A stretch of DNA of 29,332 nt from an uncultured Pseudomonadales bacterium (lineage in GTDB: Bacteria; Patescibacteriota; Microgenomatia; UBA1400; CAYNFZ01): positions 1 to 29,332 of the forward strand of contig CAYNFZ010000002.1 in assembly GCA_964396725.1 (NCBI GenBank), read 5' to 3'. The translations under genes were made by a program, and so were the position numbers. This document shows, piece after piece, positions 4,583-23,090 of this stretch. The notes below the pieces were generated by a model that had not been told where the DNA came from, did no database searches, and saw nothing but the letters and a program-made list of their open reading frames with translations. Each line of letters opens with the position of its first letter. Within the stretch, counting starts at the first letter, position 1.

Positions 4583-6418
4583 TTATTTGGAGAAGCTGCC
4601 GGTTTGAGGTTGTTCGGCGCGAAGATAGTCGGAGAGAGACATGGAGATGGTGTGATCGTGTACGCCGGGGTTGAAGTTGATGGTGGTTTGTTGAGTCAAG
4701 GCTTTGTCTATGAAGGTGGGGAGATTAAAAAGAGATCCGAATGGGGGAACGGCTCCGATTTTAACTCCAATTGTTTGTTCGACTTCTTCAGGTGAAGCCA
4801 GGCGGAGGTCGTGAATGTGGTGGAGTTGTTTTAATGCTTTTGTATCGACTTTGGTGGCGGCGGAGACGACCACAAGAATGGGGGATTTATCGGCGATCAT
4901 GACTAAGGCCTTGGCTCCGGTGGCAAGACTAGCGCCACGAACACGAGCGGCTTCCTCAGAGGTATGGACTGGTTGGTGAGAAGTAAGAGAGTAGGGGATG
5001 TTCAAGGAGTCGAGTTTGGATTTGAGTTGATCGAGGACGGAGCCGGAGGATGGGGTTTGATTGAGAGAGATGCCGAGTTCTAAGAGTTGAGCGGGATCGA
5101 GAACTGAGGGTGCATCCATGACGGAGGTACGGCCACGACCTGTTTGGGGAAAAGCTTGGACTTCGCGAATGTATTCTTCTCCTAGATGAGCCATGAGTAA
5201 TCGTTCGAAGCCATGGGCACAACCGCCGTGGGGTGGAGTGCCGAAGGAGAAGGCGTCGAGCATGTGGCCAAATTTTTGGTCGATTTGGCGATCTTGGTAA
5301 CCCATGATTTGGAAGACACTACGGAGAACTTCGGGCTTGTGGGCGCGGATACTGCCACCAGCAACCTCGAGACCGTTGCATACGAGGTCGTATTGGTTGG
5401 TAATAATTTGATCGATGTTTTGTTGGTTGAGGAGCCAATCGAGGTGGTCGTTTATGGGTTGAGAGAAGGGGTTGTGGGTGAAGGTCCAAGATCCGTTTTC
5501 GGTTTTTTCGAAGAACGGAAAATCGATAACCCAAGCGAAAGAAAGAGTGCCGGCTTGTTTTTCTGTTTCGGTTCTCAAGTCGAATTTGTCAGCACCGTAT
5601 TTTTCCATGGCTTGTTGGTAGGTAACGACGGGGAAGGGAGTGGAGGCAATATTGGCATCAATTTGTTGACAAGCATGAATGATCATTTGTTCGATGAGGT
5701 TCATGACATCTTCTCGAGAAACGAAACTCATTTCCAGGTCGATTTGGGTGTGCTCAAAGGCGCGATCGGCACGGGGATCTTCATCTCGTAAACAACGGGC
5801 AACCTGGAAATAGCGTTCGAAACCAGCGGTCATGAGTAATTGTTTGTATTGTTGAGGGCTTTGAGGAAGAGCGAAGAATTTACCGGGTTGAAGTCGACTG
5901 GGGACAACAAAGTCGCGTGAACCCTCGGGGGTAGATTTGGTAAGTATAGGAGTTTCGATTTCGGTGAAATTTTGGGAGAAGAGATATTCACGAGCGGCTT
6001 TGATGTAAGCGGAGCGAAGTTTGATGTTTTTTTGGAGGCGTGGTCGACGTAGATCGAGGTAACGGTGTTTAAGTCTGATTTCTTCGTTAATATCGAGTCC
6101 GTCGGTATCTTTGGGGATGGGGAGGGGGGCTGAGGGGTTAAGGATAGAAAGGTGGGTGGCGACTAACTCAACTGTACCGGTAGCCATGTCAGGGTTGGTC
6201 ATGGACTTGGGGCGCAGGTTGATTTTTCCGATAACTTCGACGACGTCTTCTTGGGAGGCTTTGGTGTCTTTGGTGGTGACAACTTGGAGGATGCCAGAGC
6301 GATCTCTGATGTCGAGAAAAACGATTTTACCGTGATCGCGTCTGGTGTTGACCCAACCTTTGATAGTAACTGACTCGCCTACTTTGGCTGGCGTGTCGGT
6401 GATGAGTGTGCGATTCAT
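4583..6418 (-). CDS. aspS: Aspartate--tRNA ligase (compact) fused to a C-terminal YbaK/ProX (INS-superfamily) domain
   Basis: OB fold (GWVNTRRDHGKIVFLDIRDRSG), LKHRYLDLRR, motif 1, LPQSPQQYKQLLM, motif 2 (CLRDEDPRADR), motif 3 (PPHGGCAHGFERL). The last ~155 aa show H..V.T.EEAA...GAKAL...GAVPPFG...FNPG, the YbaK/ProX pattern. Confidence 0.97.
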   Translation of the reverse strand: MNRTLITDTPAKVGESVTIKGWVNTRRDHGKIVFLDIRDRSGILQVVTTKDTKASQEDVVEVIGKINLRPKSMTNPDMATGTVELVATHLSILNPSAPLPIPKDTDGLDINEEIRLKHRYLDLRRPRLQKNIKLRSAYIKAAREYLFSQNFTEIETPILTKSTPEGSRDFVVPSRLQPGKFFALPQSPQQYKQLLMTAGFERYFQVARCLRDEDPRADRAFEHTQIDLEMSFVSREDVMNLIEQMIIHACQQIDANIASTPFPVVTYQQAMEKYGADKFDLRTETEKQAGTLSFAWVIDFPFFEKTENGSWTFTHNPFSQPINDHLDWLLNQQNIDQIITNQYDLVCNGLEVAGGSIRAHKPEVLRSVFQIMGYQDRQIDQKFGHMLDAFSFGTPPHGGCAHGFERLLMAHLGEEYIREVQAFPQTGRGRTSVMDAPSVLDPAQLLELGISLNQTPSSGSVLDQLKSKLDSLNIPYSLTSHQPVHTSEEAARVRGASLATGAKALVMIADKSPILVVVSAATKVDTKALKQLHHIHDLRLASPEEVEQTIGVKIGAVPPFGSLFNLPTFIDKALTQQTTINFNPGVHDHTISMSLSDYLRAEQPQTGSFSK

Positions 6419-6421
6419 GAT

Positions 6422-6614
6422 GAGCCCTTAATAATTGGTTGATAAACAAAAAGGTGCCACCTGATTGAAGGGTCTCTTGATAATAAGAGACGGTGCCACC
6501 TTGTAATACTTGTTCCTGCTGTGACGGGCTTACCCGGCCTGGTTTGGTGCGATGACTTCTCCCAAGCAGCGTACCTAGATTAAGGTCGTCCAGTGTCAAT
6601 GGACTGATGACGCT
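6422..6614 (-). ncRNA. T-box riboswitch (Asp), ultrashort Stem I, probably translational
   Basis: Antiterminator AAGG-UGGCACC-GUCUCUU(AUUAUC)AAGAGAC-CCUU (6502-6468). Stem IIA CGGG(UAAG)CCCG with an F-box-like CCGUCA. Stem II GCUUGG/CCAGGC. Stem I GUCCA(UUGACAC)UGGAC with GAC at 6597-6595. Directly upstream of aspS. Confidence 0.85.
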
Positions 6615-6629
6615 TTTGTAATTGAAATG

Positions 6630-6658
6630 ATTTTATCCAGACTAGGCTTTGTGGTCAA
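6630..6658 (-). promoter_or_regulatory. sigma70 promoter for the T-box/aspS transcript
   Basis: Minus strand TTGACC (6658-6653), 17 nt, TAAAAT (6635-6630). The predicted TSS falls about 10 nt before T-box Stem I. Confidence 0.75.
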
Positions 6659-6676
6659 GGTGAGATAAATGTGGAT

Positions 6677-6705
6677 TTGACAGATCCATGTTAGCTGGTT
6701 ACAAT
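6677..6705 (+). promoter_or_regulatory. sigma70 promoter for the leader/orphan transcript
   Basis: TTGACA (6677-6682), 17 nt, TACAAT (6700-6705); near consensus. Confidence 0.8.
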
Positions 6706-6728
6706 GAGGGGCGGAAATTGAGGAAGCT

Positions 6729-6803
6729 ATGAATAATTGGCACTACACCATGATTAACCTTTCGCTTCAAGTCGGAAATGACTTGAGGAGGTTGGTGGTG
6801 TAA
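6729..6803 (+). CDS. Putative attenuator leader peptide, 24 aa
   Basis: MNNWHYTMINLSLQVGNDLRRLVV*, with a GAGGA SD at 6720-6724. It overlaps mutually exclusive hairpins. Confidence 0.6.
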   Translation: MNNWHYTMINLSLQVGNDLRRLVV

Positions 6804-6827
6804 AAGCGCCCCAGAAAGCAAGAAGCC

Positions 6828-6855
6828 AACCTCCTAAGCAAGCGGAGGTTTTTTT
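6828..6855 (+). terminator. Intrinsic terminator (attenuator) before the orphan gene
   Basis: AACCUCC (6828-6834) pairs with GGAGGUU (6844-6850); run of 7 T at 6849-6855. It lies between the promoter and the CDS. Confidence 0.85.
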
Positions 6856-6865
6856 GTGAGGAAGT

Positions 6866-7417
6866 ATGAACACATGTGAGAGTGAAAATAGAAAAGTGGA
6901 GCGGCGGAAAGTGCCGGAGGTGGTACGTGAGGTGGAACCGGCGTTGGTGACAATGATTGATCAGAAACAACATGTATTGGATTGTCTTGATAATAATAAG
7001 GAGGCGATAAGGTGTATGGGAATGGAAACGGTGGATCGATTGGAGGAACAGAATTTTATGGGGATGCAGATGACATTGTTTGGTAAAGGGATTGAGGTTA
7101 TGGAGTGGGTGAAGTTGAGGGATAATAAGGAAAAACAGAGGCGGTTGGTTGAAGTGGGATTGTTGATAGGAAGTTATGCTTGCTTGATATTGAAAAATGA
7201 ACTAAGGTTTTTGCTTGATGATGCGTGCTTGCTTCGAGCTGGAGGGGAATTGAGTGAGTATACGAGAAATAAGGTGAATGAAATGGAAATATGGCGAGAA
7301 CAAGTTAATGGTAATGGTAGATTCGAGGATGATCTGGACGCGATGGTGCGACGAGCTAGAGAATGGTTGAGATCTAGAGGTTTAGAATTGGATGGTGAGT
7401 GGGATGATTTTAGGTAG
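6866..7417 (+). CDS. Hypothetical protein, 183 aa
   Basis: ORF with a GAGGA SD (6858-6862) that fills the gap before the convergent recJ. Looks helical; no family recognised. Confidence 0.75.
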   Translation: MNTCESENRKVERRKVPEVVREVEPALVTMIDQKQHVLDCLDNNKEAIRCMGMETVDRLEEQNFMGMQMTLFGKGIEVMEWVKLRDNKEKQRRLVEVGLLIGSYACLILKNELRFLLDDACLLRAGGELSEYTRNKVNEMEIWREQVNGNGRFEDDLDAMVRRAREWLRSRGLELDGEWDDFR

Positions 7418-23026: not shown

Positions 23027-23077
23027 ATGAATAACAGGAAAAATATTTTGGTTTGTGTTGTATTTGTGACCCGCTAG
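23027..23077 (+). CDS. Putative leader peptide, 16 aa
   Basis: MNNRKNILVCVVFVTR*, with a GGAGAGGA SD upstream. The stop codon lies in the loop of the terminator hairpin. Confidence 0.5.
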   Translation: MNNRKNILVCVVFVTR

Positions 23078-23090
23078 AGGCGGGTTTTTT
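23068..23090 (+). terminator. Intrinsic terminator in the 5' leader of the nucleosidase gene
   Basis: GACCCGC-UAGAG-GCGGGU followed by U-tract (T run 23085-23090). Confidence 0.85.

Follow-up and report, generated by a model that had tools for sequence, protein, structure and literature searches.

Introduction

The enterobacterial leader attenuators trpL, hisL, pheL, thrL and pheM-pheST are built from a promoter-proximal short open reading frame (ORF), four segments that form mutually exclusive helices (1:2, 2:3 and 3:4) and a terminator followed by a U-run, and the position of the ORF's stop codon lets a terminating ribosome mask segment 2. In Firmicutes, the bmrB-bmrCD, vmlR and lmo0919 leaders are attenuators with an upstream ORF (uORF) that sense translation stress or antibiotics; their uORF is short and lacks a codon run, a slowed ribosome leads to read-through of the terminator, and the gene under control can be recognised as a resistance gene (ABC-F or efflux). 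Our literature search found no paper on leader-peptide attenuation in Patescibacteria.

Here we analysed a short leader that lies divergent from aspS and that, as judged from sequence comparison, is a member of a conserved family in Microgenomates-type Patescibacteria. The family has in common with the enterobacterial attenuators the promoter-proximal ORF, the three competing helices, the terminator with its U-run and the placement of the stop codon. In contrast to them, it has no regulatory codon run, the leader analysed here matches no Rfam leader family, the members are mostly near-leaderless, the 3′ arm of the terminator doubles as the Shine-Dalgarno (SD) sequence of the next start, and the cargo is an orphan gene that changes from genome to genome. 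It resembles the Firmicutes leaders in its runless short uORF and in the expected response to a slowed ribosome, whereas its cargo lacks a recognisable domain. The mechanism is thus a classical one; the family, the host lineage and the cargo pattern are absent from the literature that we searched.

Results

Organization of the leader

The window, by which we mean the whole stretch of 29,332 nucleotides that was analysed, is one entire contig of a 1.31-Mb genome that is 97.6% complete. The leader and aspS diverge from back-to-back promoters, and the leader heads toward the 3′ end of recJ. An earlier note on this DNA had read the region as a complete trp-style attenuator in front of an orphan gene. 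When we re-read the sequence, all elements of that description were found at the positions given for them, and the leader SD is present as described, one base to the left of where the text had implied. The features of the locus are as follows.

6630-6658, minus strand: divergent promoter of aspS (TTGACC, 17 nt, TAAAAT), listed for context and outside the switch
6677-6705, plus strand: sigma-70-type promoter (TTGACA at 6677-6682, 17-nt spacer, TACAAT at 6700-6705; 11 of 12 matches)
6720-6726, plus strand: leader SD, GAGGAAG
6729-6803, plus strand: leader ORF of 24 codons, MNNWHY...RRLVV (ATG at 6729, stop UAA at 6801-6803)
6744-6773, plus strand: segment 1, 5′ strand of the anti-antiterminator, codons 6-15
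6780-6802, plus strand: segment 2, AGG AGG UUG GUG GUG, ending at the stop codon; pairs with segment 1 or segment 3
6744-6750/6796-6802, 6756-6761/6788-6793 (one G-U pair) and 6767-6773/6780-6786, plus strand: helix 1:2
6787-6795/6826-6834, plus strand: helix 2:3, 9 bp; 11 bp in RNAfold (6786-6796/6825-6835)
6825-6835, plus strand: segment 3, the 5′ strand common to the antiterminator (with 6786-6796) and the terminator
6828-6855, plus strand: intrinsic terminator (stem 6828-6834/6844-6850, 7 bp; 9-nt loop; -9.3 kcal/mol; U7 at 6849-6855)
6856-6879, plus strand: mini-ORF of 7 codons, GUG...UGA, with the GGAGG of segment 4 as its SD; overlaps the start of the orphan gene
6866-7417, plus strand: orphan cargo gene, 183 aa, with its own SD GAGGAAG at 6858-6864

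Transcription probably begins near 6712, and a TTGACA-type promoter occupies the same position in the homologs described below. Here the -10 box is separated from the ATG by 23 nt, and the 5′ UTR, counted from that presumed start, measures about 17 nt and is the longest in the family; this copy is also the one with a clear canonical SD. Most homologs lack an SD and place their ATG 8-16 nt past the -10 box. To judge by these distances, most family members appear to be near-leaderless, and the homologs without an SD would need near-leaderless initiation. The codon usage of the leader ORF itself is uninformative, with a margin near zero. The ribosome-binding site of the mini-ORF, formed by the segment 4 GGAGG, U7 and then GUG, had been missed by the earlier note.

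The 183-aa cargo ORF appears to be coding: its coding-potential margin of +0.27 per codon puts it about 50 log units ahead of the next frame. It lies only 10 nt beyond the U-tract (U-tract to ATG), and therefore has no promoter of its own. No homolog was found in 60 relatives, 5.8 billion proteins, 1.84 billion cluster representatives or the ESM atlas, and searches of Pfam, PADLOC and PHROG gave no match. A single-sequence AF2 model reached a pLDDT of 42, too poor for a fold search. With no domain, the cargo is neither a biosynthetic operon nor the synthetase of a matching amino acid.

Several further observations concern the surroundings of the leader. GC skew is extreme in this genome, with a median absolute value per contig of 0.45 over the whole genome and 0.42 over the window (1-29332), and the two strands use near-opposite codon sets (GTG 76 versus 1.8 per thousand; CTC 1.6 versus 62); loci from genomes of the same family have values of 0.17-0.34, and other families mostly about 0.1 or less, with single loci up to 0.24. 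AspRS (window 4583-6418, minus strand) carries a C-terminal tRNA_edit domain of the YbaK/ProX type (PF04073, E = 1.8e-29). The leader of aspS (window 6419-6630, minus strand, about 210 nt) contains GGUGGCACC twice; the two copies pair as a terminator-like hairpin followed by U5, and an Rfam T-box match was absent from it even at E up to 10. Other Rfam matches on the aspS side at E up to 10 were limited to a weak C/D-box snoRNA, which we regard as noise. Another short leader ORF occurs at window 23027-23090; it has 16 codons, an MNN start and an SD, and its UAG stop lies inside the terminator loop, a different geometry in which translation would open the terminator. We dropped the idea of an "MNN-leader class", as SD-ATGAAYAAY occurs in only three short ORFs genome-wide, of 42 ATGAAYAAY words, which is too few. 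Contigs from four salt-marsh and aquatic runs listed no natural variants within the species; one short contig from these runs (X2, 6753-6955) has a single-letter difference. None of the runs listed was of RNA.

Competing folds of the leader RNA

All the helices that had been claimed for this leader were recovered, namely 1:2 with its three parts, 2:3 with 9 bp, and the 7-bp terminator stem with its U7; RNAfold lengthens helix 2:3 to 11 bp. A simple terminator scan with a loop limit of 8 missed the terminator because its loop is 9 nt. In nascent RNA that reaches 6812, segments 1 and 2 form a long hairpin (-31.9 kcal/mol). The fold of the leader gave z values of -3.7 and -4.1, and 0 of 200 dinucleotide shuffles folded as well. 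Since GGAGGUU occurs in both segment 2 and segment 4, segment 4 has segment 1 as an alternative partner (6756-6767/6840-6850); owing to this pairing, which the earlier note had also overlooked, the full leader at equilibrium adopts a three-way junction in which 2:3 is formed. Two states are available at near-equal energy, namely the extended 1:2 hairpin (-31.9 kcal/mol) plus the terminator (-9.3 kcal/mol), and P1 plus 2:3 plus 1:4 (-41.4 kcal/mol). Among the 97 hairpin-plus-U-run terminators of the genome, an upstream perfect complement of at least 9 nt overlapping the 5′ arm was present in only two, at this locus and in the leader of a hisS operon on contig C38. Rfam gave no match at the gathering score anywhere in the window, and none on the leader strand at E up to 10 (6300-7000).

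We then modelled the effect of a ribosome by masking a 30-nt footprint on nascent RNA ending at 6836. Without a ribosome, the probability of 1:2 was 0.80 and that of 2:3 was 0.08, which predicts termination. With the A site on any of codons 1-15, P(1:2) fell to 0.02 or less and P(2:3) rose to at least 0.97, which predicts read-through, whereas from codon 17 to the stop P(2:3) was 0 and P(1:2) ranged from 0 to 0.49, again predicting termination. Among the 12 homologs modelled in the same manner, a ribosome on the last ~8 codons or on the stop abolished 2:3 in all 12, and this was the sole invariant. Ribosome-free RNA favoured 1:2 in just four of these genomes, among them the present one; the remaining 8 are predicted to antiterminate, so that the 1:2 "superattenuation" arm is not a feature of the family. 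The invariance of masking at the last codons suggests that the conserved logic is simple: fast translation to the end leads to termination, and a delayed ribosome leads to read-through. In this copy, the strong 1:2 hairpin occurs together with an SD, in a genome of extreme GC skew.

A family of leaders with changing cargo

A unit of promoter, 16-32-codon ORF and terminator with a competing antiterminator lies divergent from aspS in at least 15 related genomes. It is present at 12 of 30 aspS loci of relatives and at 3 of 10 further loci, and more copies occur in several Gottesmanbacteria-type genomes of the public collection. According to public records, the relatives are Microgenomates-type Patescibacteria (Roizman-, Gottesman-, Beckwith- and Curtissbacteria). 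The far side of the locus was inspected in the window and in the genome G009, which contains a positional ortholog flanked by aspS and recJ, with a TTGACA-type promoter, a 24-codon ORF and a terminator. Its antiterminator has one base inserted in each strand in a compensatory manner (GGAGGUUGG/CCAACCUCC in the window versus GAGGUUUGGU/ACCAAACCUC in G009).

When the leader DNA was compared with the 60 relatives, only short matches were obtained, and those in the terminator region proved to be units of promoter, short ORF and terminator; the matches in L004, L007 and L018 lie within coding sequence and were rejected as chance. An alignment of 12 members (A1) has in common the promoter, the ATG, a CA(N)-YU(N)-AYY block, a GGAGGUU(U)GGUGGUGUAA/G block and an AACCUCC...GGAGGUUUUUUU terminator. 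The second of these blocks corresponds to segment 2 and is kept in several homologs, and the terminator type likewise recurs among them. The succession GGAGG, U-run and then AUG or GUG is found in 6 of the 12 homologs, and in two genomes (G001 and G059) that AUG is the start of the cargo gene.

The ORFs downstream are mutually unrelated orphans in every genome, even within the family. An all-against-all BLASTP comparison of the cargo ORFs gave nothing below E = 0.05, and for the cargoes of the homologs no noteworthy match came from Pfam, PADLOC or PHROG. The word "orphan", which the earlier note had used, thus suits the downstream gene, for which there is no homolog, and does not suit the leader, which has a family. 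A cargo that varies in this way is odd for a dedicated regulator.

A similar element was seen outside the relatives, in an unrelated low-GC metagenome contig (Ga0233423_10006927; L025:395-520, minus strand), which carries an identical triad of GGAGGUUGG, CCAACCUCC and GGAGGUUUU. There, the triad follows a promoter and a 14-codon ORF that ends in the loop of the first hairpin, precedes a 78-aa orphan and folds with z = -4.5.

Conservation of the reading frame and covariation of the helices

Between the promoter-proximal ATG and segment 2, the leader frame contains 0 stops in 247 codons across 15 homologs, whereas 15 and 24 stops interrupt the other two frames, each over 238 codons. Multiplying the per-genome shuffle probabilities for upkeep of the ORF gives about 1e-6, a figure that is somewhat optimistic because the scan from which the ORFs were taken required an ORF near the terminator. 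Relative to the end of segment 2, the stop codon falls at -3 to +9 nt in 9 of 12 genomes; the other three have it shortly ahead of segment 2. The earlier note had held that loss of the ORF alongside conserved hairpins would speak for a different kind of switch; instead, the ORF stays open in the 15 positional homologs and its stop tracks segment 2.

In the MAFFT alignment A2 the helices were displaced in several rows, and we therefore assessed covariation by duplex energies, permuting cognate against non-cognate strands. All 12 genomes folded can form helix 2:3, with duplex energies of -15 to -25 kcal/mol. Cognate pairs of segments 2 and 3 gave a mean of -18.2 kcal/mol versus -13.0 kcal/mol for non-cognate pairs; none of 20000 permutations reached the cognate mean, and the cognate duplex always ranked 1st to 4th of 15. 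Three genomes (G032, G038 and G026) display a three-way change, in which CCUCC is replaced by CCCCGC(C)/CCCCCG and the GGAGG of both segments 2 and 4 by GCGGGG/GGGGG, and G060 has a G-U intermediate in 2:3. Helices 2:3 and 3:4, for which covariation among homologous leaders had been proposed as a check, thus both covary, as seen in the cognate test and the three-way changes. Each of the two also has private base pairs, and 2:3 is therefore not a mere shadow of 3:4.

Leaders of the same build before hisS and thrS

The second terminator with an upstream complement belongs to a leader on contig C38 of the same genome (L026:1718-1879, minus strand). It has a near-consensus promoter (TTGACA-16-TATACT), a 26-codon ORF encoding N-H-H-H-N, an antiterminator CGGAGGUUGU/ACAACCUCCG and a terminator with U7, and the ORF stops where the outer 1:2 helix ends. 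The operon that follows comprises a GNAT-like gene, an AstE/AspA-like gene and hisS, and directly upstream of this leader is a TrpR/YerC-like gene. HHH leaders with terminators stand before hisS operons in five genomes (this genome, G006, G015, G020 and G023), and no triple-run ORF with a terminator was found on the opposite strand upstream of hisS. G041 (L011) has a TTTT leader, which is followed by a 61-aa ORF and thrS. The hisS leaders of G006 and C38 and the thrS leader of G041 have 24 and 26 codons, and the hisS leader of G015 has 16. These ORFs start 8-11 nt past the -10 box, from which near-leaderless initiation seems normal in the lineage.

The hisS and thrS leaders have the same build as the leader of the window, with a promoter directly upstream and a near-identical core (GGAGGUUG, CAACCUCC, GGAGGUUUUUUU). 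Their signal is evident from HHH or TTTT and the matching synthetase, whereas the window leader has neither such a run nor a matching cargo. Since the His and Thr runs precede hisS and thrS in the same Patescibacteria order, the sequences indicate that ribosome-mediated attenuation is in use in the lineage.

Some further leaders were noted in passing. Of the same build are a YYY leader before a 348-aa gene and an M20 peptidase (L002, G016) and a Y-H-W-W-Y leader before a class I/II aminotransferase (L015, G015). An element on contig C54 of this genome (L028:1590-1710) has a 21-codon ORF with an SD, rich in aromatic residues (F-W-F-Y-Y-F), which spans a decayed copy of the terminator hairpin that follows; no promoter was found for it, and only small ORFs lie downstream.

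What the leader may sense

In segment 1 of the 24-codon ORF, codons for a single amino acid form neither a run nor a cluster, and so the sequence does not name the signal. The earlier note had singled out the N-N-W-H-Y block as the stall-sensitive codons. As a specific sensor this block is not supported, since the mask model makes any stall on codons 2-15 equivalent, and since the family has in common only a loose x-[H/Q]-[L/F/Y]-[T/I] motif together with an enrichment of Asn, Ile, Gln and Trp. In the control zones of the 15 leaders, Asn accounts for 11.0% of residues, 3.4-fold more than in the other frames, and is present in 15 of 15; Ile is enriched 2.3-fold, Gln 2.4-fold and Trp 4.7-fold, and Pro is absent (0 versus 8.2% in the other frames). 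The motif keeps a consistent frame with variation at third positions and overlaps the RNA pairing strands. The absence of Pro, the loose motif and the third-position variation hint at constraint on the peptide, as expected of arrest leaders of the TnaC, SecM and ErmCL type, whose own sequence is conserved and needed for stalling. On the other hand, non-synonymous changes in the leader (8) outnumber synonymous ones (3) between the close pair G026/G038, and part of the common motif may be a by-product of the constraints of RNA pairing.

It had further been supposed that the organism probably cannot make amino acids, and the genome agrees with this: no match to HisA/F or TrpA was found in it, and GatB is present, which suggests that the organism probably relies on imported amino acids and on tRNA-dependent amidation. 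Altogether, the most likely signal is slow decoding, through a shortage of charged tRNA or general translation stress, instead of a codon run for a single amino acid; a sensor weighted toward Asn and Gln, or an arrest peptide, is possible. Asn- and Gln-tRNA are the products of the route formed by AspRS and GatCAB. It is tempting to speculate, though we consider it doubtful, that a dedicated sensor (an arrest peptide or a reader of Asn/Gln-tRNA) gates a conserved "slot" at the aspS side for lineage-specific, fast-evolving stress genes. If true, such a contingency locus, with a conserved regulator and a variable cargo, would be of an undescribed kind.

Discussion

The most plausible reading of this locus, and one that we hold with good though not full confidence from sequence analysis, is that of a ribosome-mediated transcription attenuator that depends on its leader ORF. 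The trp-style interpretation of the earlier note is thereby supported, chiefly through comparative evidence that was unavailable to it. We propose that transcription begins near 6712 and that a ribosome loads at the SD and ATG (6720-6731). Provided that translation of the leader keeps time with the polymerase, a ribosome that proceeds quickly to codons 16-24 or the stop would cover segment 2, allowing 3:4 to pair and the polymerase to terminate at U7 near 6855. A ribosome held anywhere on codons 2-15 would instead cover segment 1, so that 2:3 pairs, no terminator is formed and the polymerase reads through into the orphan gene. During such read-through, the freed GGAGG of segment 4 could act as the SD of the 7-codon mini-ORF that overlaps the start of the orphan gene. 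As this GGAGG is an SD, the terminator hairpin would also hide it, and a second layer of control through GGAGG, U-run and AUG/GUG is likely. If no ribosome loads, 1:2 would fold in this copy and transcription would terminate.

The same elements could be read in other ways. The switch may be real but set by an RNA-binding protein, uncharged tRNA or a small ligand, with the short ORF incidental. Most homologs lack an SD, the codon-usage margin of the leader ORF is near zero, the full leader settles into a stable three-way junction and the adjoining aspS leader resembles an RNA-sensed switch, all of which would suit a device that works without a ribosome. We nevertheless consider it quite improbable: Rfam gave no match on the leader strand at E up to 10, the ORF is open in 15 homologs while stops accumulate in the other frames, and its stop codon tracks segment 2. 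In addition, an SD arises exactly in the copy with the long 5′ UTR, and the His and Thr runs of the sister leaders indicate that promoter-proximal ORFs are read in this lineage. A mere chance arrangement of sequence rich in GGAGG and CCUCC, in a very G-rich strand, deserves mention because GGAGG-like words are frequent on such a strand and a 24-codon ORF taken alone stays open with a probability of about 0.2. Against a z of -4, the rarity of such a complement (only 2 of 97 genome terminators), and conservation and covariation across genomes, we attach next to no probability to this; the comparative data effectively refute it.

Another view divides the locus into unrelated parts, namely a stand-alone gene for a small RNA or small protein that ends in a constitutive terminator, followed by unrelated ORFs of fast turnover, with 2:3 as the relic of a tandem duplication of the terminator hairpin. 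It would account for cargo that is non-homologous in every genome, even within the family, and for the likeness of segment 2 to segment 4, with an upstream hairpin that looks like a decayed terminator copy in C38, C54 and L025; in addition, pairing of segment 4 with segment 1 can close a helix immediately 5′ of the U-tract. However, 2:3 extends past the part that it has in common with 3:4 and the private parts covary too. The succession of GGAGG, U-run and AUG ties the terminator arm to a downstream start in 6 of 12 genomes, and directly to the cargo in 2, while the cargo in the window begins 10 nt after the U-tract and has no promoter of its own. We therefore regard separate genes as unlikely, and retain ribosome-mediated attenuation as the preferred reading.

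Gene regulation in Patescibacteria (CPR) is almost unstudied, and the locus would place an old mechanism in a new lineage. Together with the hisS and thrS leaders, it suggests textbook coupling of transcription to translation in these reduced, auxotrophic cells. The variant described here is unusual in that the regulator persists from family to family and the gene under its control is a different one each time. The switch is compact and directly testable, either in a heterologous host or in a cell-free system, and it offers a handle on the purpose of orphan CPR genes, as the condition that slows translation of the leader would be the condition in which those genes are needed.
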